Source: a virus (taxonomy: Duplodnaviria > Heunggongvirae > Uroviricota > Caudoviricetes). Taken from it: 16,232 bases of DNA. Location: positions 1 through 16,232 of IMG/VR virus record IMGVR_UViG_2562617151_000002; one strand, 5' to 3'. Positions 2,815 to 14,936 of the stretch are shown piece after piece. The notes beneath the pieces are model-generated. The model made no database searches and had not been told where the DNA came from. It saw only the letters and a list, made by a program, of their open reading frames with translations. The position numbers were made by a program, and so were the translations under genes. Numbering within the stretch: position 1 is the stretch's first letter; each line of letters starts with the position of its first letter.

Positions 2815-3303
2815 ATGAGTCTTTTGAATGAAGTTCAGAAATTCATTGAAGCCCATCCGGGGTGTACTTCCGGAGACATTGCGGATGCTTTTGCAGGCTA
2901 CTCACGGCAGCGCGTTCTGCAGTCAGCAAGCAAGTTACGTCAGAGTGGGCGTGTGGCTCACCGTTGTGAAGGGGATACACGCAGACATTTCCCGCGCCTG
3001 ACTGAGAGAGCGCAGGAGCCGGAACCACAACCAGTTCGTGAAACCAGACCTGCGCGCAATTTCTATGTCGGCACTAACGATCCACGGGTAATTTTGTGCC
3101 TGACCCGCCAGGCTGAAGAACTGGAGTCCAGGGGCTTATACCGTCGTGCTGCAACCGTGTGGATGGCGGCATTCCGTGAAAGCCACTCCCAACCAGAACG
3201 AAACAATTTTCTGGCGCGTCGTGAGCGGTGTTTACGGAAAAGCAGCAAGCGCGCTGCATCGGGTGAAGAGTGGTATCTGTCAGGGAATTACGTGGGGGCT
3301 TAA
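2815..3303 (+). CDS. Putative regulator: N-terminal wHTH-like region plus PerC-like C-terminal domain
   Basis: ATG 2815 follows the upstream stop by 2 nt. C-terminal segment QAEELESRGLYRRAATVWMAAFRESHSQPERNNFLARRERCLR matches the PerC/Pch family signature (LE..GLYRRAA..W). N-terminus MSLLNEVQKFIEAHPGCTSGDIADAF looks like a small HTH. Confidence 0.5.
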   Translation: MSLLNEVQKFIEAHPGCTSGDIADAFAGYSRQRVLQSASKLRQSGRVAHRCEGDTRRHFPRLTERAQEPEPQPVRETRPARNFYVGTNDPRVILCLTRQAEELESRGLYRRAATVWMAAFRESHSQPERNNFLARRERCLRKSSKRAASGEEWYLSGNYVGA

Positions 3304-3956
3304 TGAGTAATAAATATTGCCAGGCGCTGGTGGAACTGCGGAACAAACCAGCCCATGAACTGAAGGAAGTGGGCGATCAGTGGCGCACGCCGGACAACAT
3401 TTTCTGGGGAATTAACACCCTGTTTGGCCCGTTTGTTCTGGATCTGTTCACTGACGGTGATAACACCAAATGTGCTGCGTATTACACGGCGGAAGACAAC
3501 GCGCTGGCGCATGACTGGTCAGAACGTCTTGCGGAGCTTAAAGGTGCTGCCTTTGGTAATCCCCCATACAGCCGCGCCAGTCAGCATGAGGGGCAATACA
3601 TCACAGGCATGCGTTACATCATGAAGCATGCCAGTGCCATGCGTGATAAAGGTGGGCGCTATGTTTTCCTGATCAAAGCTGCCACCAGCGAAGTGTGGTG
3701 GCCGGAAGATGCAGATCATATTGCTTTTATTCGCGGGCGTATTGGTTTTGAACTGCCTGCCTGGTTTATCCCGAAAGATGAGAAGCAGGTGCCGACAGGC
3801 GCTTTCTTCGCTGGTGCTATTGCTGTTTTCGACAAGACCTGGAAGGGACCGGCAATCAGCTACATCGGGCGCGATGAACTTGAGGCATGTGGTGAGGCGT
3901 TTCTGGCGCAGGTTCGCCAGCAGGCGGAAAAACTGGTCAGGGAGATGGCGGCATGA
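3303..3956 (+). CDS. Phage DNA N6-adenine methyltransferase (Dam-type, orphan)
   Basis: ATG 3303 overlaps the upstream stop (TAATG). Translation has W-TP near the N-terminus, FVLDLFTDGDN, and the catalytic NPPY motif (GNPPYSRAS). An in-frame GTG at 3270 is a less likely start. No restriction partner is adjacent. Confidence 0.8.
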   Translation: MSNKYCQALVELRNKPAHELKEVGDQWRTPDNIFWGINTLFGPFVLDLFTDGDNTKCAAYYTAEDNALAHDWSERLAELKGAAFGNPPYSRASQHEGQYITGMRYIMKHASAMRDKGGRYVFLIKAATSEVWWPEDADHIAFIRGRIGFELPAWFIPKDEKQVPTGAFFAGAIAVFDKTWKGPAISYIGRDELEACGEAFLAQVRQQAEKLVREMAA

Positions 3957-4279
3957 CGACGTTAACTCAATGCCAGCAGCAGGTGCTGGATATGCTGATT
4001 TCTTATCAGAAAGAACGTGGCTTCCCGCCAACCAATCAGGAGGTGGCAACCATGCTGGGATACCGTTCAGTGAATGCAGCGGTGGAGCATCTTCGCGCAC
4101 TGGAGAAAAAAGGCGTCATCACGATAAAGCGTGGTGTGGCCCGGGGGATCACGCTTCATACCGTGGTGAAGGACGACGACAGCGAGGCGGTCGGGATTAT
4201 CCGCTCACTGCTTGCCGGTGAGGAAAACGCCAGGCTGCGTGCAGCCCACTGGTTACATGAGAGGGGCCTGAAAGTATGA
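3953..4279 (+). CDS. LexA N-terminal DNA-binding-domain homolog lacking the S24 peptidase domain
   Basis: ATG 3953 overlaps the dam stop (ATGA). The 108-aa product aligns by eye with LexA residues 1-70 (LT..QQ.V.D.I...G.PPT..E.A..LGYRS.NAA.EHL.AL.KKGVI.I..G..RGI.L). The protein ends before any Ala-Gly cleavage site or Ser/Lys dyad. Confidence 0.75.
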   Translation: MTTLTQCQQQVLDMLISYQKERGFPPTNQEVATMLGYRSVNAAVEHLRALEKKGVITIKRGVARGITLHTVVKDDDSEAVGIIRSLLAGEENARLRAAHWLHERGLKV

Positions 4280-4671
4280 AGCTGATCCTACCTTTTCCGC
4301 CCAGCGTGAACACGTACTGGCGACACCCCAACAAAGGGGCGTTTGCTGGTAAGAGCCTGATAAGCGCGGCGGGGCGAAAATTCCAGAGCGCGGCGTGTGC
4401 AGCAATAGTTGAGCAGTTACGTCGTCTGCCGAAACCAACGTCGGCACCTGCTTCAGTGGAGATCGTGTTGTTTCCTCCGGATAACCGGATCCGCGATCTG
4501 GACAACTATAACAAGGCGCTGTTTGACGCCCTGACCCACGCGGGTGTGTGGGAAGACGACAGTCAGGTGAAAAGAATGCTGGTGGAGTGGGGACCGGTTA
4601 TCCCGGAGGGGAAGGTCGAGATCACTATCAGTAAGTACGAAAAAGCGAGTTGCAAATTAGCAACTCGGTAA
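4276..4671 (+). CDS. rusA: RusA-family Holliday junction resolvase
   Basis: ATG 4276 overlaps the upstream stop (ATGA). Translation has LPFPPSVNTYWR and RDLDNYNKALFDALTHAGVWEDDSQV, the RusA core with catalytic Asp residues. Confidence 0.8.
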   Translation: MKLILPFPPSVNTYWRHPNKGAFAGKSLISAAGRKFQSAACAAIVEQLRRLPKPTSAPASVEIVLFPPDNRIRDLDNYNKALFDALTHAGVWEDDSQVKRMLVEWGPVIPEGKVEITISKYEKASCKLATR

Positions 4672-4716
4672 CGGAATTGAGCAACACCCTAAATTTGGGT
4701 ATTACCTCGTTAAAGA

Positions 4717-4736
4717 TACTGTATTTATGAACAGTG
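4717..4736. promoter_or_regulatory. Near-consensus LexA operator (SOS box)
   Basis: TACTGTATTTATGAACAGTG matches the E. coli LexA box TACTG-(N10)-CAGTA, with CTGT at 4719-4722 and ACAG at 4731-4734. It sits about 100 bp upstream of the next gene start, next to a candidate TTGATA(4742-4747)-17-TAAGTT(4765-4770) promoter. Confidence 0.65.
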
Positions 4737-4833
4737 TATCCTTGATAACTATTAAAAATCGCAGTAAGTTCATCCTGCATCAACGAAAAGGGAGTGCAGT
4801 CCCGCTCGTGGATAAAAATTTGTGGAGAAACCA

Positions 4834-5649
4834 ATGAATCAGTTGCTTGTAATTGATGGCGTTTCTGTGCGCCAGTACTTCGAATCTAACTACTGTCTTA
4901 ACGACCTTCAGAAAGCAGCTCTTCTTGCCGCTGGTGAGAATCGCTCCTCCCGTTCGCTGGAAGTTCACGAGTTTATGCGTCGTCCTGAAACGAAGGCTCT
5001 TGTGGAATTATTGGAAGAAGAAACTACGGGAGATTCCCGTAGTATTCCTGTCATCACCATTCAGGGGCGCAATGGTGGGACGTATGTCTGTAAAGAGCTG
5101 GTCTATGCATATGCAATGTGGATCAGCCCGGCATTCAGCTTAAAAGTGATACGTACTTTTGATGCGCTTCATAATTCATCACCAGAAGAAACCACATCCG
5201 ACAAAATTAAATCCGGGGTCATTCTGCTTGAATCAGCAGCAAAGACTCTAAATCTGTCAAACTCCTCGAAACTTGGTGCATACCAGAAATTATCAAAGGT
5301 AGCTGGTCTTCCTGAACTTATGCCGATCTATGCCATTGATGCACCTGCTGATGCGCCAGATGGTTCAAGCCGCCCTACGCTGTCGCTGAGTGCACTGCTG
5401 AAGCAGTATGGTATCCGCCTGACGGCTAATCAGGCATATCACCAGATGGCGAAGCTGGGGATCGTTGAACAACGCGAACGATACAGCCGTACCGCGATTA
5501 ACAACATCAAAAAATTCTGGTCGCTGACCGCGAAAGGCTGCATGTTCGGCAAGAACATCACCAGTCCTGCAAATCCGCGCGAGACGCAGCCGCATTTCTT
5601 CGAATCCCGATTCCCTGAGCTGTTAAAGCTGCTCGATACCGTTCATTGA
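4834..5649 (+). CDS. Phage antirepressor-like protein (Bro-N/AntA-like N-terminus, KilA-C/ANT-like C-terminus)
   Basis: ATG 4834 has GGAG 6 nt upstream; the in-frame GTG at 4822 is less likely. N-terminal LLVIDGVSVRQYFESNYCLNDLQKAA ... GTYVCKELVYAYAMWISPAFSLKVI and C-terminal AKLGIVEQRE ... KGCMFGKNI resemble phage antirepressor domains. Confidence 0.6.
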   Translation: MNQLLVIDGVSVRQYFESNYCLNDLQKAALLAAGENRSSRSLEVHEFMRRPETKALVELLEEETTGDSRSIPVITIQGRNGGTYVCKELVYAYAMWISPAFSLKVIRTFDALHNSSPEETTSDKIKSGVILLESAAKTLNLSNSSKLGAYQKLSKVAGLPELMPIYAIDAPADAPDGSSRPTLSLSALLKQYGIRLTANQAYHQMAKLGIVEQRERYSRTAINNIKKFWSLTAKGCMFGKNITSPANPRETQPHFFESRFPELLKLLDTVH

Positions 5650-5650
5650 G

Positions 5651-6646
5651 GTGACCGTGAGAGCACTACTGACCCCTGAAATTGCCCCGCGTATGGGGAT
5701 CGTATTGTTCAGACCAGGTTCAGAGCTGATGCCCTTGTTTATGCAGGGGCGTGTCCTGCTGGAGCCTGAGCCGGAACGTTATTCATCTTTCGCCAGTGGT
5801 GCCGTTCCGGCGGCATCACAACCGCTGGCGGATGATCCTGCCGTTCGGGCCGTGTTCCGCAATGAGGCAGTGATCCGTCGTGCTGGTGGCGTGGAATGTC
5901 TTGAAAGCTGGTTACTTCGTGAAAAAGGCTGCCAGTGGCCTCATTCCGACTGGCACAGCGAGAACATGACAACAATGCGACACGCTCCGGGCGCAATCCG
6001 TCTGTGCTGGCACTGCGATAACCAGCTGCGCGATCAGTTCACGGAACGGCTGGAATCAATGGCAACGGATAACTGTGCCCGCTGGGTGTTGTCTGTTGTG
6101 CGTCGGGATCTCGGTTTTGATGACAGTCATGTTGTGACAATGCCGGAACTGTGCTGGTGGCTGATTCGTAATGATCTGGCGGATGCCTTACCGGAAAGTG
6201 CAGCCCGTAAGGCACTGAGATTACCGAAGCCTGTTGTGCCGTCTGTTACCCGGGAAAGTGACCTTGTGCCTTCGGTTCCTGCCACCAGCATCATCCAGGA
6301 TAAGGCGAAAAAGGTGCTGGCGCTGAAAGTGGATCCGGAGTCGCCGGAGTCTTTTATGTTACGCCCAAAACGTCACCGCTGGGTTAATGAAAAGTACACG
6401 CGCTGGGTTAAGACGCAGCCGTGCGCATGTTGTGGAAAACCTGCTGATGATCCCCACCACCTGATAGGCCACGGTCAGGGGGGAATGGGTACAAAAGCGC
6501 ATGACCTTTTTGTGTTGCCTTTGTGCAGAAAGCATCACGACGAGCTGCATGCGGATACCGTGGCATTTGAAGAGAAGTATGGCTCCCAGCTGGAGCTGAT
6601 ATTTCGTTTTATCGATCGCGCACTGGCGATTGGTGTGCTGGCCTGA
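5651..6646 (+). CDS. Prophage protein with C-terminal Cys/His HNH-like motif (DUF968-like)
   Basis: 331-aa ORF immediately after the upstream stop. C-terminus [23 protein letters not shown] ... [10 protein letters not shown] looks like a zinc-binding HNH-type module. Start is uncertain: GTG 5651, GTG 5657 or ATG 5693. Confidence 0.55.
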
Positions 6647-6663
6647 TTTTGTGGAGAAAGTTA

Positions 6664-7047
6664 ATGCGTGATATTCAGATGGTTCTTGAACGTTGGGGAG
6701 CGTGGGCGGCTAATAATCATGAAGATGTGACCTGGTCGTCCATTGCCGCCGGTTTTAAGGGATTAATTCCTTCAAAAGTAAAATCTCGCCCGCAATGTTG
6801 TGACGATGACGCGATGATCATTTGCGGGTGCATGGCCCGTCTGAAAAAGAACAACAGCGATTTACACGATTTATTAGTAGATTATTATGTATGTGGTATG
6901 ACATTCATGTCACTGGCAAGTAAGCATTGCTGCTCGGATGGTTATATCGGGAAAAGGTTACAGAAGGCTGAGGGCATAATTGAAGGGATGTTAATGGCAT
7001 TAGATATCCGGTTAGATATGGATATCGTTGCTAATAATTCTAATTGA
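6664..7047 (+). CDS. Late-gene antiterminator Q-like protein (small QuuD-type)
   Basis: ATG 6664 preceded by GGAG (6652-6655). The 127-aa product is Cys-rich ([23 protein letters not shown]), consistent with a zinc-binding Q. It lies directly upstream of the porin and lysis genes, as in DLP12. The ORF track extends to TTG 6649. Confidence 0.6.
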
Positions 7048-7079
7048 TATGCAATTGTTTACTAAAAGTTATTAAAAAT

Positions 7080-7098
7080 GGGGCGTGGAAACGCCCCC
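7080..7098 (-). terminator. Rho-independent terminator candidate for the porin gene
   Basis: 7-bp GC stem GGGGCGT/ACGCCCC with a 4-nt loop. On the minus strand it is followed by ATTTTTAAT. It lies about 140 nt downstream of the porin stop. Confidence 0.5.
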
Positions 7099-7184
7099 AA
7101 AATAAAGGGTAATATATAACAGAAGGTTTATATAGTAAGAAGCAAGGTAGTGCTTCTAAAGGAAGTGGCTTGAGGGCTCCACTT

Positions 7185-7224
7185 ATATGTTGCGGAGGCA
7201 AAGCCTCCCGCAACATATCTTTTT
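7185..7224 (+). terminator. Rho-independent terminator candidate downstream of Q
   Basis: Long inverted repeat ATATGTTGCGGAGGC / GCCTCCCGCAACATAT (one bulge) followed by CTTTTT on the plus strand. Confidence 0.55.
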
Positions 7225-7235
7225 CGTAAGTCAGA

Positions 7236-8318
7236 TTAGAACTGATAAACCAGACCTACAGCGACGATGTCGTCGGTATCAATACCAGCTGTTTTGGTAA
7301 ACTTACTATCGTCAATTAAGTTGATTTTGTAATCAACAAAAGTGGACATGTTTTTATTAAAGTAGTAAGTAGCACCGACATCGACATACTTGACTAAGTC
7401 TCGGTCACCATGAACACCAAGGTCTTTACCTTTTGACTGAAGGTAAGCAACAGATGGACGCAGACCGAAGTCAAACTGATATTGTGCTACTGCTTCAAAG
7501 TTTTGTGCTTTGTTTGCAATATGGTTATTACCAAAAACGGTCATATTCTGAGTTTCAGAATATGTGGTAGCCAGATAGATATTGTTCGCATCATATTTCA
7601 GGCCTGCAGCCCATACTTCCGCATTTTTGCCGGAGGCATTGAATTTGCTCTTACCATAGGCGACCTGACCGTCAGTGCGATCTGATTTAGCATAGGTTGC
7701 ACCCACGCCGAATCCTTCATACTCATAAGTAGTGGAGAAACCGAAACCATCACCATTGGCTTCAGTTACGTCAGTGCGGTCATTTTTACCCTGATACTGA
7801 GCAGCAAAGTTCAGGCCATCGACCAGACCAAAGAAGTCGTTGTTACGATAAGTTGCAACACCAGTAGTGCGACCAGTCATGAACACATCTGTTTGGGTCC
7901 AGGTATCACCACCGAATTCTGGCAGGACGTCAGTCCACGCACCGATGTCGTATGCTACACCGTAGTTACGGCCGTAATCGATTGAGCCGTAATCACCAAA
8001 TTTCAGGCCTGCAAATGCAAGACGGGTTTTGTCTTTGGAAGAACCTTGAGATTCAGCACGGTTGCCTTTGAATTCATATTCCCACTGACCGAAACCAGTC
8101 AGTTGATCGTTGATTTGGGTTTCACCTTTGAAGCCAAGACGGGCATAAGTAGTATCACCATCATCTGCATCATTAGAGGAGAAGTAGTGCTTGGCATTAA
8201 CTTTCCCGTATAGATCCAGCTTGTTACTGTCTTTATTATAAATTTCAGCTGCCTGAGCAGACATCGCCATCAGTACTGATGCAGCTACAGCAGAAATTGC
8301 CACTGTTAATTTTTTCAT
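7236..8318 (-). CDS. nmpC: Prophage-encoded general porin (OmpC/OmpF/PhoE family; NmpC/Lc type)
   Basis: 360-aa ORF with a signal peptide ([23 protein letters not shown]|AEIYNKD), porin motifs ([52 protein letters not shown]) and C-terminal VGLVYQF. It sits between Q and the holin on the opposite strand, as nmpC does in DLP12 and lc in PA-2. The exact symbol is uncertain. Confidence 0.85.
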
Positions 8319-10255: not shown

Positions 10256-10753
10256 ATGAAATCATTAACCCTCTTCAATCAACCAATTCGTATCGGTGAA
10301 GATGGCATGATCTGCCTCACTGATATGTGGAAAGCCAGTGGTAAAAGTGAATCTGAATCGCCTTACCACTACCTGCGAAACAAGCAGACCAAAGAGTTCT
10401 TAGCCGAGCTGGAGAAAAACCACGAATCTGTGGTTTTTACTGAGCGCGGTGTACACGGTGGAACATATGGCGGGAAGTTTGTTGCTTACGATTATGCGGC
10501 TTGGTTAAACCCCGGGTTCAAGTACGCGGCCTATAAAGTCCTCGATGACTACTTCACCGGAGAACTTCAGCATCGCAACAGCTTAAGTGCGCAGCTCAAC
10601 ATGAAATGTCATGAGTTTGACCAGAAGAAAGACATGGCGAGCTTCTGCGGACAAGGGCTGGCAGCATGGCGCTATACGAAGCCAGTGTTGGTCGCTGAGA
10701 TTAACTCCCTGGCTAACCAGCTGCAGATTACGATCCCCGGGCTTCCGGGATGA
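10256..10753 (+). CDS. KilA-N domain protein
   Basis: ATG 10256 preceded by AGAGTAGG. Translation FNQPIRIGEDGMICLTDMWKASGK ... GTYGGKFVAYDYAAWLNPGFKYA fits the KilA-N/APSES-type fold pattern. Occupies the post-lysis position where bor sits in DLP12. Confidence 0.7.
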   Translation: MKSLTLFNQPIRIGEDGMICLTDMWKASGKSESESPYHYLRNKQTKEFLAELEKNHESVVFTERGVHGGTYGGKFVAYDYAAWLNPGFKYAAYKVLDDYFTGELQHRNSLSAQLNMKCHEFDQKKDMASFCGQGLAAWRYTKPVLVAEINSLANQLQITIPGLPG

Positions 10754-12661: not shown

Positions 12662-12987
12662 AGACCTTCCGCTGGAAAGTGAAACCCGGTATGGATGTGG
12701 CTTCGGTCCCTTCTGTAAGAAAGGTGCGCTTTGGTGATGGCCATTCCCAGCGAGCGCCTGCCGGGCTGAATGCCAACCTGAAAACGTACAGCGTGACGCT
12801 TTCTGTCCCCCGTGAGGAGGCCACGGTACTGGAGTCGTTTCTGGAAGAGCACGGGGGCTGGAAATCCTTTCTGTGGACGCCGCCTTATGAGTGGCGGCAG
12901 ATAAAGGTGACCTGCGCAAAATGGTCGTCGCGGGTCAGTATGCTGCGTGTTGAGTTCAGCGCAGAGTTTGAACAGGTGGTGAACTGA
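12658..12987 (+). CDS. M: Minor tail protein M (intact)
   Basis: The 109-aa product (MKTFRWKVKPGMDVASVPSVRKVRFGDG...SAEFEQVVN) matches lambda gpM from memory over essentially its full length. Confidence 0.9.
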   Translation: MKTFRWKVKPGMDVASVPSVRKVRFGDGHSQRAPAGLNANLKTYSVTLSVPREEATVLESFLEEHGGWKSFLWTPPYEWRQIKVTCAKWSSRVSMLRVEFSAEFEQVVN

Positions 12988-14936
12988 TGCAGGATAACAG
13001 CGCACAGGCGGCAGCGGCCTCGCAGACTGCATCGGCAAACTCCGCAACAGCAGCTAAAAAATCAGAAACCAACGCGAAAAATAGCGAGACAGCCGCAAAG
13101 ACGAGCGAAACCAACGCAAAGTCCAGCCAGACGGCAGCGAAGACCAGCGAAACGAATGCTAAAGCCAGTGAAACTGCAGCAAAAAACAGCCAGGTTGCAG
13201 CAGCCCAAAGCGAGAGCGCGGCAGCCGGTTCTGCGACTTCAGCAGCTGGATCAGCAACTGCTGCGGCTAACAGCCAGAAAGCTGCGAAGACGAGTGAAAC
13301 TAACGCAAAGTCCAGCCAGACGGCAGCGAAGACCAGCGAAACGAATGCCAAAGCCAGTGAAACTGCGGCGAAAAGCAGTCAGGATGCAGCAGCCCAAAGC
13401 GAGAGTGCTGCAGCTGGTTCTGCAAGCGCGGCGGCTGCTTCTGCCACTGCATCAGCCAACAGTCAAAAAGCAGCAAAAACCAGTGAAACCAATGCAAAGA
13501 CAAGCGAGACTGCAGCGGCGAACTCGGCGAAAGCATCGGCAGCAAGCCAGACGGCAGCTAAAGCAAGCGAAGATGCAGCCAGAGAGTACGCAAGCCAGGC
13601 TGCGGAGCCGTATGAATATGTCTTACAGCCGCTGCCTGATGTGTGGATACCGTTTAACGATTCGCTGGATATGATTACGGGCTTTTCGCCATCATATAAA
13701 AAAATTGTTATTGGTGACGATGAAATAACGATGCCTGGCGACAAGATTGTTAAGTTTAAACGTGCATCGAAAGCAACCTATATTAACAAATCTGGTGTGC
13801 TGACAGAGGCTGCCATTGACGAGCCACGATTTGAACGTGATGGCCTGCTTATTGAGGGGCAAAGAACAAACTACATGCTCAATTCGGAAAGCCCTGCCAG
13901 TTGGGGGCGATCGTCAAATATGGATGTGCCCGAAACTGGGACGGATAGTTTTGGTTTTACCTATGGAAAGTTTGTCTGTAACGATTCTCTGATTGGGCAA
14001 ACCTCAGCCATTAATATGGCATCAATTGCTGCAACAAAGTCAGTTGATGTCTCAGGCGATAATAAATACGTGACAACCTCATGTCGTTTTAAAACAGAAC
14101 TGCAGGTAAGGTTGCGTATCCGGTTTGATAAATATGACGGTAGCGCAACAACTTTTCTTGGTGATGCGTATATTGATACACAAACGCTTGAAACTAATAT
14201 GACAGGCGGCGCTGCCTCAAGGATTACAGCGAGAGTCAGAAAGGACGAAGCTACCGGATGGATTTTTGCAGAGGCAACAATTCAGGCAATTGATGGGGAG
14301 TTAAAAATAGGTTCTCAGATACAGTATTCTCCTAAGCAGGGCGGGGCAACCGTATCTGGTGACTATATTTATCTGGCCACCCCACAAGTAGAAAATGGGC
14401 CTTGTGTATCATCTTTTATTATATCAGGAACGACGGCGGCGACCCGTGCAAGTGATATGGTAACTATTCCCGCAAGAAACAATATTTATAAACAACCTAT
14501 CAGTGTTCTTATTGAAGTTAATAAGAATTGGGATATTGTGCCAAACGGAGCACCAAGAATTTTTGACCTGAACGCAACATCATCATTCGCTGAAGAGTCT
14601 TTTATATTTGCATTCCGAGGGCCGACATCAACAGTTCTTCCTGGATCGGCATATGTTAGTGTTGGTTCCCCGTCAAGAGGAACTGGTAACAATGAAGTTG
14701 TAAACACTGGAATATATGGAGTTAAAATAGACAAAGATGGCGGCTTAGCAGCGTCGCTGAATGGTAACATTTCATCAAAAGTCAGTACTTCATGGGGTGG
14801 TGCTATAAAATCAACGGCAATAAGAATAGGAGGGCAGACAACTGCCGGAACGAGGCATTTGTTTGGACACATCAGGAATTTCAGAATATGGCATAAAGAA
14901 TTAACTGATGCGCAAATGGGGGAGAGTATTAAATGA
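12987..14936 (+). CDS. Side-tail-fibre-like protein; apparent fusion of the L start to an internal Stf repeat region, with a lectin-like C-terminal domain
   Basis: First 10 nt ATGCAGGATA equal the lambda L start (MQD), then the sequence switches to Ala-rich AKTSETNAKSSQTAAK repeats typical of Stf. The C-terminal approx 400 aa are non-repetitive and end in GHIRNFRIWHKELTDAQM, resembling the last strand of LamG/concanavalin-like jelly rolls. ATG overlaps the M stop. Confidence 0.7.
   Translation: MQDNSAQAAAASQTASANSATAAKKSETNAKNSETAAKTSETNAKSSQTAAKTSETNAKASETAAKNSQVAAAQSESAAAGSATSAAGSATAAANSQKAAKTSETNAKSSQTAAKTSETNAKASETAAKSSQDAAAQSESAAAGSASAAAASATASANSQKAAKTSETNAKTSETAAANSAKASAASQTAAKASEDAAREYASQAAEPYEYVLQPLPDVWIPFNDSLDMITGFSPSYKKIVIGDDEITMPGDKIVKFKRASKATYINKSGVLTEAAIDEPRFERDGLLIEGQRTNYMLNSESPASWGRSSNMDVPETGTDSFGFTYGKFVCNDSLIGQTSAINMASIAATKSVDVSGDNKYVTTSCRFKTELQVRLRIRFDKYDGSATTFLGDAYIDTQTLETNMTGGAASRITARVRKDEATGWIFAEATIQAIDGELKIGSQIQYSPKQGGATVSGDYIYLATPQVENGPCVSSFIISGTTAATRASDMVTIPARNNIYKQPISVLIEVNKNWDIVPNGAPRIFDLNATSSFAEESFIFAFRGPTSTVLPGSAYVSVGSPSRGTGNNEVVNTGIYGVKIDKDGGLAASLNGNISSKVSTSWGGAIKSTAIRIGGQTTAGTRHLFGHIRNFRIWHKELTDAQMGESIK
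13116..13234. repeat. Intragenic direct repeat, copy 1 (about 119 bp)
   Basis: GCAAAGTCCAGCCAGACGGCAGCGAAGACCAGCGAAACGAATGC... recurs 189 bp downstream with a handful of substitutions. Confidence 0.7.
13305..13423. repeat. Intragenic direct repeat, copy 2 (about 119 bp)
   Basis: Near-identical to 13116-13234. The 189-bp offset equals 63 codons, so the protein repeat stays in frame. Confidence 0.7.

Follow-up and report, generated by a model that had tools for sequence, protein, structure and literature searches.

A LexA DNA-binding-domain-only protein encoded near a predicted SOS box in a lambdoid prophage remnant of Escherichia coli

A phage gene whose product resembles the DNA-binding half of LexA lies shortly upstream of a predicted LexA operator, and this locus raises the question of whether the protein and the operator work together. 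We analyzed the locus in a 16,232-nucleotide stretch of viral DNA (IMG/VR record IMGVR_UViG_2562617151_000002), hereafter the window. As a deletion remnant of an SfV/SfIV-like lambdoid prophage of E. coli, the window corresponds to the nin (delayed-early) segment, and its genes follow the order Dam, LexA-like, RusA, the box, KilA-N, DUF968/HNH, and Q (Table 1). The position of dam in this order matches that in SfV, Stx2a_1447, and O104:H4. Stop and start codons overlap from dam through the LexA-like gene to rusA, the LexA-like stop and the rusA start sharing an ATGA, and the gaps between kilA-N, the DUF968 gene, and Q are only 1-2 bp. No strong terminator was found between 5650 and 7047, where only weak candidates lie, in the coding region. 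The DUF968/HNH gene, whose order is unchanged across all architectures compared, is probably co-transcribed with kilA-N, and Q is a possible distal target of SOS-gated transcription.

Table 1. Features of the locus (positions are those of the window; an empty strand cell means that none applies)
Feature	Position	Strand	Details
Phage Dam (N6-adenine) methyltransferase gene	3270-3956	+	Pfam PF05869, E 9.6e-46; PADLOC MTase_II
LexA N-terminal-domain-only protein gene	3953-4279	+	108 aa, ATG start; phrog_362; wHTH 1-69; two-helix extension 74-103
RusA Holliday-junction resolvase gene	4276-4671	+	Pfam PF05866, E 6.4e-15
Perfect 8-bp hairpin	4646-4667		CGAGTTGC-AAATTA-GCAACTCG; straddles rusA stop; T-run after hairpin on minus strand only
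SOS box / LexA operator, predicted	4717-4736		TACTGTATTTATGAACAGTG (CTGT-N8-ACAG); PWM 21.9 bits
Candidate -10	4737-4742	+	TATCCT; abuts box
Candidate promoter	4742-4747 and 4765-4770	+	TTGATA, 17 bp, TAAGTT; 8 of 12 matches
5'-UTR hairpin	4790-4803	+	GGGAGTGCAGTCCC; small
KilA-N domain protein gene	4834-5649	+	271 aa; first gene downstream of box; RBS GGAGAA 4823-4828
DUF968/HNH-like protein gene	5651-6646	+	Pfam PF06147, E 3.4e-81; 1 bp past kilA-N stop
Late antiterminator Q gene	6649-7047	+	Pfam PF06530, E 7.7e-54; 2 bp past DUF968

The LexA-like protein

When we searched the 108-aa protein against Pfam, LexA_DNA_bind (PF01726) covered residues 1-65 at the full length of the model (1-65 of 65, E 2.9e-19), and phmmer aligned residues 2-69 with PDB LexA chains at about 50% identity (E 7.5e-16 to 1.6e-15). 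The AF2 model (pLDDT 78.6) contains the LexA winged helix followed by extra helices at 74-87 and 93-103, and its top PDB fold match was the LexA-DNA complex 3jso_B, with an rmsd of 1.2 Å over 68 residues at 50% identity. The sequence-only reading had proposed homology to the LexA N-terminal winged-helix domain, and the Pfam, phmmer, and fold matches agree in confirming it. The score against TIGR00498, the lexA equivalog, was 71 bits and fell under the cutoff of 110.95 because model positions 1-91 of 203 alone are present; RefSeq names the protein 'LexA family protein/transcriptional regulator'. LexA reads the CTGT half-site through S39, N41, A42, and E45 (PMC11442139), and pairwise alignment revealed that all four residues are identical in the 108-aa protein. 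In a family alignment, the C-terminal helical hairpin is common to the diversified LexA-like family, and E45 is not conserved across the wider family, so that DNA specificity may differ by lineage.

The chain ends at residue 108 (...RGLKV), no Pfam match to Peptidase_S24 was found in it, and the cleavage site and the Ser/Lys dyad (Ser119/Lys156 equivalents) are absent. The earlier expectation that RecA could not inactivate the protein thus stands. An 'AGE' at 88-90 aligns with A84-G85-E86 of LexA, but its Ala varies within the family (I, V or N in loci L042-L045). The dN/dS values of the gene against diverged homologues were 0.20-0.27, indicating purifying selection on the gene and ruling out a decaying fragment. 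Isolated LexA N-terminal domains bind DNA weakly unless dimerised. The two-helix C-terminal module probably provides a new interface for dimerisation, although a dimer held together by helices 74-103 is a guess. We infer the DNA binding, the dimerisation, and the sign of the effect of this protein. A literature search returned no study of the enterobacterial LexA-NTD-only family.

The SOS box and the kilA-N gene

The box lies in the 163-bp intergenic spacer between rusA and kilA-N, about 440 bp downstream of the LexA-like gene and 98 bp upstream of the good RBS and the ATG of kilA-N. We scored it with a PWM made from 26 E. coli SOS boxes, and its 21.9 bits compare with a training median of 21.2 (range 12.9-27.5). 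Among 2000 dinucleotide-shuffled versions of the window, only about 0.1% scored as high (p≈0.001), and the second-best site in the window scored 8.5 bits. CTGT-N8-ACAG occurs once in the window, at the box, and the 8-base core alone is not rare (0.20 expected; at least one in 34 of 200 shuffles). By its sequence, the predicted box ranks with genuine E. coli operators, and the description of it as a near-perfect LexA operator in the sequence-only reading is borne out by the score, the p value, and its being the sole strong site in the window. LexA would be expected to bind there; a literature search found no ChIP or expression report covering 4717-4736.

The box is identical, or differs by a final A (24.0 bits), in 35 IMG/VR loci, in SfIV, where it is the only strong one in the 39.8-kb genome, and in sampled E. 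coli copies from 187 genomes. It has stayed intact in every IMG/VR copy (35) and in every E. coli copy sampled, with an 11-bp indel and point changes beside it. It is invariant only among near-identical E. coli/Shigella copies, and this invariance is therefore uninformative. In the nearest cross-genus KilA-N orthologues the box is decayed or absent (Citrobacter -1.3 bits, Cedecea 4.7) and the LexA-like gene is still there. SOS-like palindromes were also observed 70-120 bp upstream of related kilA-N genes, scoring 17.2 bits in L047, 19.4 in L078/L082, 12.5 in L044/45, and 11.6 in L067 and L080.

A promoter scan of the spacer found no sigma-70 promoter with at least 9 of 12 matches, and a promoter would have to be placed there by weaker candidates. 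TATCCT stands to the box in the same geometry as TAGAAT/TACAAT does in L082 and EPP-1, and the geometry of one candidate promoter puts the box upstream of the -35. The small hairpin GGGAGTGCAGTCCC is conserved upstream of this KilA-N variant, box-less relatives included. Here, we need to consider that the box might be a non-functional relic or a chance palindrome, with kilA-N read through from upstream nin transcription. We regard this as very improbable: the box outscores the median real operator (p about 0.001), SfIV has no other strong site, and the box is intact in all of the IMG/VR and sampled E. coli copies despite the nearby indel and point changes, although boxes at the homologous position have decayed in Cedecea, Citrobacter, and L044, the spacer has no clear promoter, and SfV-type kilA-N is expressed without the spacer.

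The protein encoded by 4834-5649 matched KilA-N (PF04383) with an E of 1.3e-15 and 57.6 bits (cutoff 23.8) and belongs to phrog_129 (E 4e-109), which PHROG labels 'transcriptional regulator'. It is 37% identical to P1 KilA over about 105 aa and 43% identical to 'ant' of phage Emek in the N-terminal domain only. Searches of Pfam, NCBIfam, PDB sequences, and PDB folds gave no match for residues ~123-271, and no ANT/KilAC or other antirepressor signature was found in the product. The name 'antirepressor-like', which had been given to this product from the sequence, found no support, as it goes back to the KilA-N domain alone and the C-terminal half is without any match. The same reading had suggested that the KilA-N protein could be a trans-acting antirepressor of co-resident prophages and that the LexA mimic could shut its promoter during SOS. 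The layout here, with genes behind a predicted LexA box, is that of the antirepressor loci in Gifsy, 186, and N15, and KilA-N-type N-terminal domains occur on some annotated antirepressors (Emek 'ant') and on P1 KilA. We nevertheless consider this model improbable, for the protein has no ANT/KilAC domain and a C-terminal half unmatched in sequence and fold, and permanent closure of the box by the mimic would leave the SOS gating purposeless. The model also drew on the statement that the element has no repressor of its own, which is correct for the window, where a repressor gene is missing because the window is a deletion remnant, but not for the intact relative SfIV. SfIV has its own CI repressor gene, the product of which is annotated as 'UmuD-like protein', i.e. 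LexA/S24-related, and an antirepressor should therefore be unneeded.

Distribution of the two elements and the proposed mechanism

The LexA-like gene was found in 2233 of 5426 complete E. coli genomes (41%), Stx2 phages included, as a fixed member of a Dam-LexA-like-RusA cassette, while the boxed spacer was found in 187 E. coli genomes only. The box follows only about 7% of the copies of the gene, which occurs about 14 times more often without a neighbouring box, and in most copies (e.g. SfV, Stx2c phages) kilA-N begins 19 bp after rusA with no box. The spacer and the N-terminal ~60-80 codons of kilA-N form a mosaic module unlike the common SfV-type allele, with exchange boundaries at the rusA 3' end and at about codon 60-80 of kilA-N. 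The last ~10 codons of rusA are part of the swapped module, and the RusA C-terminus is unlike that of SfV. As far as sequence comparison tells, the adjacency of the LexA-like gene and the box in the window is the product of a mosaic module swap, and it is therefore no evidence of a dedicated pair; a functional link between the two is only inferred. A small control gave no sign of a general enrichment: boxes scoring 16 bits or more were present in 2 of 21 loci that lack the LexA-like gene and in 3 of 22 that have one.

In other lineages, the LexA-like family lies inside SOS-box operons without rusA or dam. First, in Klebsiella-type prophages the phrog_362 gene is downstream of a 17-30-bit box in all 28 of 28 loci, half of which (14) have a box-DinI-ORF101-LexA-like operon whose box overlaps the -10 (read in L206). 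Second, the Edwardsiella EPP-1-like lineage has the order box-KilA-N/Rha-LexA71, in which the boxed gene is followed by a translationally coupled gene for a LexA NTD of 71-72 aa (FRSPNAAEDHLKAL). Before the KilA-N or Rha gene of L082 and of Edwardsiella phage EPP-1, a good -10 (TAGAAT or TACAAT) is overlapped by the box. A scan of LexA-like loci totalling 1.63 Mb gave 46 boxes that score 20 bits or more, versus 0.2 expected from shuffles. The three architectures represent about three independent events, not dozens.

We tentatively favor, at somewhat less than even confidence, an SOS-gated internal operon of the Gifsy style together with a LexA surrogate that is RecA-proof and would take up SOS boxes again. 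The rusA/kilA-N spacer would act as an SOS-gated internal promoter/operator. In undamaged cells, host LexA on the box would silence kilA-N and probably also DUF968-HNH and Q, and upon DNA damage RecA-stimulated cleavage of LexA would free all three genes. The 108-aa protein would be expressed from the early cassette, with the two-helix module in place of the cleavable catalytic/dimerisation domain of LexA and without the degradation signal carried by the cleaved host fragment. Once host LexA is destroyed, the protein would most likely occupy CTGT-type operators of host and phage (e.g. 4717-4736), and this occupancy would damp SOS-dependent expression or limit it in time.

It is also conceivable that the two elements are unrelated neighbours, the LexA-like protein serving the Dam-LexA-like-RusA cassette and the boxed spacer with the kilA-N 5' end having come later, under host LexA only. 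The protein might then be a DNA-binding partner or regulator of recombination and methylation, or might have its own non-SOS operator. The overlapping codons of dam, the LexA-like gene, and rusA, the constant coupling of the LexA-like gene to rusA, the counts of 2233 genomes for the cassette and 187 for the boxed spacer, and the exchange boundaries all fit such a history, as do an in-frame LexA-NTD/RusA arrangement in L062, the control without enrichment, and the box-less orthologous loci that keep the LexA-like gene. However, all four CTGT-reading residues are kept, which is hard to explain if the target is not SOS-like, and the same family occurs elsewhere in SOS-box operons lacking rusA and dam. 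We hold this explanation to be unlikely, though well worth keeping in view.

The proposed surrogate mechanism can be extended to the whole family: phrog_362 proteins, whose carriers include Stx2a and Stx2c phages and O104:H4, may be RecA-proof LexA surrogates in ~40% of E. coli genomes that re-silence CTGT-N8-ACAG operators after LexA destruction, a generalization that we find rather doubtful. If true, phrog_362 would switch off the SOS regulon of the host along with LexA-gated operons (antirepressors, KilA-N, DinI) of the carrier and its rivals. It would thereby govern how long SOS lasts, the hierarchy among prophages at induction, and possibly the output of toxin phages; the box-kilA-N-DUF968-Q string of the window would be one cis target. 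Prophage induction under SOS control lies behind Shiga-toxin release, horizontal gene transfer, and antibiotic killing. Very common prophages of E. coli, Shigella, and Klebsiella carry in their early operon an uncleavable, putatively stable LexA DNA-binding module whose operator-reading residues are unchanged. Should this module act as proposed, it would give phages a means of their own to end or reshape SOS from within the cell and could arbitrate among co-resident LexA-gated prophages. In addition, in this remnant without a repressor gene the predicted SOS operator lies directly before kilA-N-DUF968-Q, which suggests that DNA damage could turn on Q and the intact lysis cassette of a 'cryptic' prophage.

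Comparison with known systems

LexA-controlled induction operons have been described as dinI-gfoA/gftA/gfhA-irsA in Gifsy-1/2/3, tum in coliphage 186, and antC in N15 (Lemire et al. 2011, PMC3121763). The Gifsy operons and the window are alike in layout: away from the immunity region, between the replication genes and Q, a palindrome is followed by a LexA box (predicted in the window) and then by an operon (putative in the window), and the hairpin at 4646-4667 sits where Gifsy prophages have a terminator-like palindrome preceding the LexA box (PMC3121763). The Gifsy-2 box TACTGTGTTTATATACAGTG is 39 bp before dinI. While the first genes of the Gifsy operons encode DinI and a ~70-aa antirepressor, the first gene here encodes the KilA-N protein of 271 aa. 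The Klebsiella relatives have a Gifsy-like DinI-first operon with a LexA-NTD as the third gene, but Gifsy IrsA is DUF1367 and not LexA-like, and Klebsiella ORF101 is not similar to Gifsy GftA.

The nin slot just upstream of Q is usual for modular DNA-binding proteins of the KilA-N / Bro-N / Rha type, a group with P1 KilA and the nin-region Roi-like genes among its members; it is filled by KilA-N here, and a Rha-domain protein fills the equivalent boxed slot in EPP-1. [quoted passage not shown]

The LexA(1-84) cleavage fragment of the host is in effect a natural NTD-only LexA, with the same fold and base contacts as the 108-aa protein. The latter differs from it in being encoded by a stand-alone gene under purifying selection and in its added helical hairpin. 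Cleavage exposes a C-terminal degradation signal on the N-terminal fragment of host LexA, which is then cleared by ClpXP and Lon. Neher and co-workers reportedly found in 2003 that LexA 1-84 of the host is still active as a repressor and that ClpXP has to remove it. Degradation of the host LexA cleavage fragments is supported in the literature.

The nearest studied relative of the 108-aa protein, and its only characterised analogue, is gp6 of the Bacillus thuringiensis tectivirus GIL01, a truncated homologue of LexA encoded by this phage (Fornelos et al. 2018, PMC6182141). Both are early-gene phage products that consist essentially of the LexA winged helix with no catalytic domain, both are close to host LexA (44% identity for gp6, ~50% here), and in each case the phage genome also contains operators for host LexA (predicted here). 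The 108-aa protein derives from a Gram-negative LexA, and its origin is therefore independent of gp6. The C-terminal extension is 14 residues (wing strands) in gp6 and a ~40-residue two-helix module here. What gp6 does is different: it activates the LexA-repressed late promoter P3 from -43.5, through a K38-dependent recognition site (GaCACA..TGTGaC) distinct from the LexA box (PMC6182141). By analogy, the 108-aa protein could bind at or near the box and activate kilA-N-DUF968-Q once host LexA is gone, so that entry into late expression would depend on DNA damage and on early phage expression together, in the manner of GIL01 P3. Besides the gp6 precedent, the box centre at about -50 relative to the TTGATA/TAAGTT candidate, the weak candidate -35 elements, which fit a need for an activator, and the position of Q downstream in the gene string are in line with this. 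Most carriers of the LexA-like gene, however, have no box before kilA-N, and in Klebsiella and EPP-1 the gene is downstream of a box overlapping the -10, a repressor-type position that suggests negative feedback. Moreover, whereas gp6 relies on K38 and a site different from the LexA box, the 108-aa protein keeps S39, N41, A42, and E45 of LexA, and these unchanged contacts argue against an altered operator specificity. We therefore give gp6-like activation only a small chance, and the comparison sets an activator with a changed target site beside a protein that retains the operator contacts of LexA itself.

The LexA-like protein

The 108-aa product can be identified without doubt as a LexA N-terminal domain. 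It was matched end to end by Pfam LexA_DNA_bind (E 2.9e-19), phmmer against the PDB returned LexA chains only (E ~1e-15, ~50% identity over residues 2-69), and the TIGR00498 lexA equivalog matched over positions 1-91 of 203, with a score below its cutoff. When we examined the AlphaFold2 model (pLDDT 78.6), it showed three helices and a two-stranded wing as in LexA, followed by a low-confidence linker (residues 71-75) and the helices 74-87 and 93-103. Foldseek ranked the LexA-operator complex 3jso first, with an rmsd of 1.2 Å over 68 residues. The identity proposed in the sequence-only reading is thus borne out by sequence and predicted structure alike, as is its claim that the protein stops short of the LexA catalytic domain, since the S24 domain is absent from the 108-aa product. 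Because the catalytic and cleavage features that define LexA are missing, the protein is not a LexA orthologue; the database label of the family is merely "LexA family transcriptional regulator". HMMER aligned "AGE" at residues 88-90 with the LexA cleavage site, and we considered a vestigial cleavage site or a LexA/RecA decoy, which was ruled out because the Ala is variable across the family.

It has been described that E. coli LexA reads out CTGT through S39, N41, A42 and E45 (PMC11442139). All four residues are identical in the phage protein, and P40, E44 and R28 differ. Comparison of the gene with diverged homologues gave dN/dS values of 0.20-0.27, indicating purifying selection. The C-terminal amphipathic helical hairpin is kept across the family with invariant L86, L87, A93, A97 and L101, and it could serve as a dimerising element.

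The SOS box and the surrounding prophage

The 16.2-kb window holds the degraded remains of a lambdoid E. coli prophage, 100% identical to several human isolates, and its immunity region and most replication functions have been deleted. The iteron-like repeats just upstream of the O remnant look like a scar left when the immunity/replication region was deleted. Shigella phage SfIV, an intact relative, has a nin region 99% identical to that of the window and carries in addition cI, cro and cII, its CI being annotated as "UmuD-like protein". The earlier statement that this element lacks its own repressor therefore holds for the window but reflects decay. Q-dependent late transcription would need to cross the antisense porin gene, whose position between Q and the holin gene we take to be shared with DLP12. 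No SOS box was found upstream of the second KilA-N gene.

Features of the window and of the spacer in front of the KilA-N gene
Feature	Position	Remarks
Integrase	1-1164	minus strand
Xis-like HTH gene		after integrase in gene order
Iteron-like 15-bp repeats	2180-2243	TCTGACCCGTCAAAA, 4.3 tandem copies
Lambda-O-type replication protein, C-terminal remnant	2444-2812	only C-terminal third of such initiators matched
PerC-like gene	2815-3303
Dam methyltransferase	3270-3956
LexA-like gene	3953-4279	108 aa
RusA	4276-4671
Hairpin preceding the box	4646-4667	like the Gifsy arrangement
Spacer		163 bp, between RusA and KilA-N gene
SOS box	4717-4736	TACTGTATTTATGAACAGTG
Promoter candidate TATCCT	4737-4742	abuts box
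Promoter candidate TTGATA-17-TAAGTT	4742-4770	would put box centre near -50
Hairpin GGGAGTGCAGTCCC	4790-4803	kilA-N 5' UTR
KilA-N protein	4834-5649
DUF968/HNH	5651-6646
Antiterminator Q	6649-7047
Porin gene, OmpC/NmpC-type	7236-8318	complete; minus strand; antisense insertion between Q and holin gene
Holin, lysozyme, Rz		downstream of porin gene; cassette intact
Second KilA-N gene	10256-10753	165 aa; after lysis cassette; N-terminal part phrog_129, C-terminal ORF11CD3 domain
Tail genes		after second KilA-N gene
649-aa tail-fibre-like ORF, N-terminal third	12987-13600	long low-complexity SETNAK/SQTAAK/AAKTSE repeat

The box lies in the spacer, 98 bp upstream of the KilA-N ATG, and is the sole CTGT-N8-ACAG of the window, a bare core that is expected by chance in ~17% of shuffles. 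On a matrix built from 26 E. coli operators (training range 12.9-27.5 bits, median 21.2) the 20-mer scores 21.9 bits; when the window was dinucleotide-shuffled 2000 times, ~0.1% of the shuffles reached this score. It is the unique strong site in SfIV as well. To judge from its sequence, the site is probably the near-perfect LexA operator that had been claimed. Among near-identical copies the box is intact in all (33 end in G and 2 in A), and an 11-bp indel segregates next to it; that the box is a relic we regard as very improbable.

When 3800-5800 was scanned for promoters and terminators, none of the sigma-70 candidates in the spacer reached 9/12. Spacer copies in E. coli are 98-100% identical and hence uninformative for phylogenetic footprinting, and in divergent spacers the alignment was too poor to define conserved -35/-10 elements. 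The hairpin in the kilA-N 5' UTR is conserved in the box-less relatives from Citrobacter and L042 (..GGGAGTGCAGTCCCC..), and might act on RNA stability or translation independently of LexA control. For a minus-strand small gene or sRNA (4834-4646), hinted at by a minus-strand terminator-like site, we found neither a promoter nor a coding signal.

In the product of the boxed gene, the KilA-N domain is the only recognisable part. For the C-terminal ~150 residues, Pfam (with E values allowed up to 10), NCBIfam, PADLOC, PDB sequences and Foldseek-PDB gave no significant match, and PHROG 129, the KilA-N family, is annotated only as "transcriptional regulator". The label "antirepressor-like" is accordingly weak. 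We consider the antirepressor model of the sequence-only reading quite unlikely. P0359, a protein in which LexA-like residues 1-79 run into the middle of a KilA-N protein, is a decay product; as a Rosetta-stone fusion it was ruled out, since it arose by a deletion from LexA-like residue 79 to mid KilA-N.

Distribution and linkage of the gene and the box

The LexA-like gene is among the commonest E. coli prophage genes: of 5426 complete genomes, 2233 carry it, in a total of 2855 copies with identities of 90% or more. It is also carried by SfV (orf42), SfII, SfIV, mEp460, the cdtI phage, and Stx2a and Stx2c phages, always within a translationally coupled string of Dam (or PerC), LexA-like and RusA. 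Its function might be tied to Dam and RusA, with the adjacency to the box being accidental. The overlap of these genes argues for such a link, as does an in-frame LexA-NTD-RusA ORF in a related locus (L062 2228-2836; 202 aa, LexA-NTD 66% identical), which could represent a genuine fusion or the loss of a stop codon; we regard this alternative as possible, though doubtful.

In the majority form (SfV, Stx2a_1447 and Stx2c), KilA-N starts 19 bp after rusA and there is neither spacer nor box. The boxed spacer was found in 187 genomes and 5 phage records, and it travels with a distinct rusA 3' end and a distinct KilA-N N-terminal segment, indicating that the juxtaposition in the window arose by mosaic module exchange. 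Over their N-terminal 129 residues the KilA-N variants are ~50% identical as proteins, and DNA similarity returns at window position ~5020-5077. Boxes of at least 20 bits numbered 46 in 1.63 Mb of LexA-like loci, while 0.2 were expected from shuffles. However, LexA boxes are common in nin regions generally, for example in Gifsy, and in a small control drawn from divergent KilA-N loci, sites of at least 16 bits were not enriched near the LexA-like gene (3 of 22 loci with the gene, 2 of 21 without). Of the 80 loci in the P0130 protein lineage, where RusA follows the LexA-like gene, most lack a box within ±8 kb. The proposed pairing of gene and box thus stands in part: both features are real, but they were brought together by mosaic exchange, and enrichment in the control is absent.

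When we compared the closest cross-genus KilA-N orthologues (Citrobacter 80%, Cedecea 73%), the box was lost with the LexA-like gene still upstream. Upstream of kilA-N, the best Citrobacter site scores -1.3 bits and the best Cedecea site 4.7 bits, and the Cedecea site resembles a box in half-decayed state (ATG...CAG). Among more distant viral loci, SOS-like palindromes lie 70-120 bp ahead of kilA-N in L047 (17.2 bits), L044/45 (12.5) and L067 (11.6). LexA control of the kilA-N slot therefore looks old and, at the same time, evolutionarily labile.

Besides the window type, we found two further architectures combining a box with a LexA-NTD-only gene, each essentially one evolutionary event. The first belongs to an Enterobacterales lineage (IMG/VR loci L078/80/82 and L089-95, and the cultured Edwardsiella phage EPP-1) and has the order RusA, SOS box, KilA-N, a 71-72-aa LexA NTD, DUF968 and a Q-like gene, with a Rha-domain protein in the KilA-N slot of EPP-1. 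Its box scores 19.4-24.8 bits and overlaps at its 3' end a good -10 (TAGAAT or TACAAT); the LexA NTD has the recognition helix FRSPNAAEDHLKAL, and its start overlaps the upstream stop. The second is found in Klebsiella-type prophages (L184-L210, L217 and phage ST846-OXA48phi9.1), where all 28 loci have a 17-30-bit box upstream of the conserved string ORF101, LexA-like, ORF67, DUF968 and Q. Here the LexA-like protein is phrog_362, the family of the window protein, and a DinI gene comes first in half of the loci (14 of 28). Detailed reading of L206 showed a box that overlaps the -10 (TTGAAC...TATACTGTTTATTTATACAGTA) and lies 40 bp from the ATG; essentially this box recurs in the DinI loci, 39-40 bp upstream of the dinI ATG. 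In its region 6837-7206, L206 also has a second box of perfect consensus (TACTGTATATATATACAGTA, 30.4 bits) before a 109-aa UmuD'-like gene (phrog_3469), whose product starts MGFPSPAKDY, i.e. already "pre-cleaved"; a terminator and the boxed dinI operon follow.

Boxes also occur at other sites in related prophages. Near-perfect SOS boxes (23-27 bits, e.g. CACTGTTTATATATACAGTA) occur in L125 (4430-4449) and in the LexA-like-carrying prophages L115, L116, L131, L144, L166 and L215. In L125, the one locus inspected, the box lies inside a cI-like S24 repressor gene, in the HTH-peptidase linker region; in the others a strong box lies about as far ahead of the LexA-like gene. A roadblock by LexA or the LexA-like protein within cI is conceivable. 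In phages that have the LexA-like gene and no box before kilA-N, an SOS-type palindrome of 22.5 bits, TACTGTAAAAATAAACAGTG, makes up codons 3-9 (NTVKINS) in the DNA methyltransferase gene that lies between Q and lysis/stx (SfV record L088, 34170-34189; Stx2c_2409 L226, 16747-16766; L186, 11434; L212, 11824). Stx2c_2409 further carries a tandem pair of boxes at 49580-49627, which score 18.8 and 23.1 bits and are spaced 28 bp apart; they lie within the prophage, ~230 bp from its right attachment-site end.

A proposed two-layer account and related systems

The best-supported account combines a LexA-gated spacer with a RecA-insensitive SOS-box binder. In the first layer, the spacer would act as a LexA-gated internal operator/promoter for kilA-N, and its control would extend to DUF968 and Q through the 1-2-bp gene junctions. 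This layer is supported by the high score of the box, by the lack of a second such box in the window or in SfIV, by the preceding hairpin as in Gifsy, and by the canonical overlap of box and -10 in the related EPP-1 and L082 operons. In the repressor-less remnant, we infer that the spacer promoter would put Q, and hence holin, lysozyme and Rz, under SOS control.

In the second layer, the 108-aa protein would most simply be a RecA-insensitive SOS-box binder, in which the LexA reading head is kept and the cleavable dimerisation domain is swapped for a helical hairpin. It presumably lacks the C-terminal signal that targets the host N-terminal fragment to ClpXP. LexA(1-84) reportedly retains residual repressor activity, a finding ascribed to Neher et al. 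in 2003. Degradation of host LexA cleavage fragments is supported by the literature. Where the gene lies downstream of the box, as in the Klebsiella and EPP-1 types, the LexA-like protein would give negative feedback; this fits with the operon also encoding DinI, a further SOS damper. Where it lies upstream in the early operon, as in the window and SfIV, it would reclose the box after the early genes are on. The gene is noteworthy because it is so widespread, Stx phages included, and the hypothesis is directly testable.

Our literature search found no study of enterobacterial phage LexA-NTD proteins. The box-gated operon follows the same theme as those of 186, N15 and Gifsy, with a KilA-N gene as its cargo. 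The Gifsy dinI-antirepressor-irsA operon is the reference design (PMC3121763), and the Klebsiella-type architecture matches it in position and design. Unlike the LexA-NTD gene of the Klebsiella type, Gifsy-2 IrsA (STM1020) is a DUF1367 protein, which ruled it out as a LexA-like gene; ORF101 was likewise rejected as a GftA relative, having no similarity to it. The 108-aa protein belongs to a looser grouping, truncated LexA homologues encoded by phages, of which gp6 of the Bacillus thuringiensis tectivirus GIL01 is the only studied example. The 108-aa protein might be a gp6-like activator or AND gate, which seems unlikely to us. It differs from gp6 in its origin, in its C-terminal module and in its retention of host-type contact residues.
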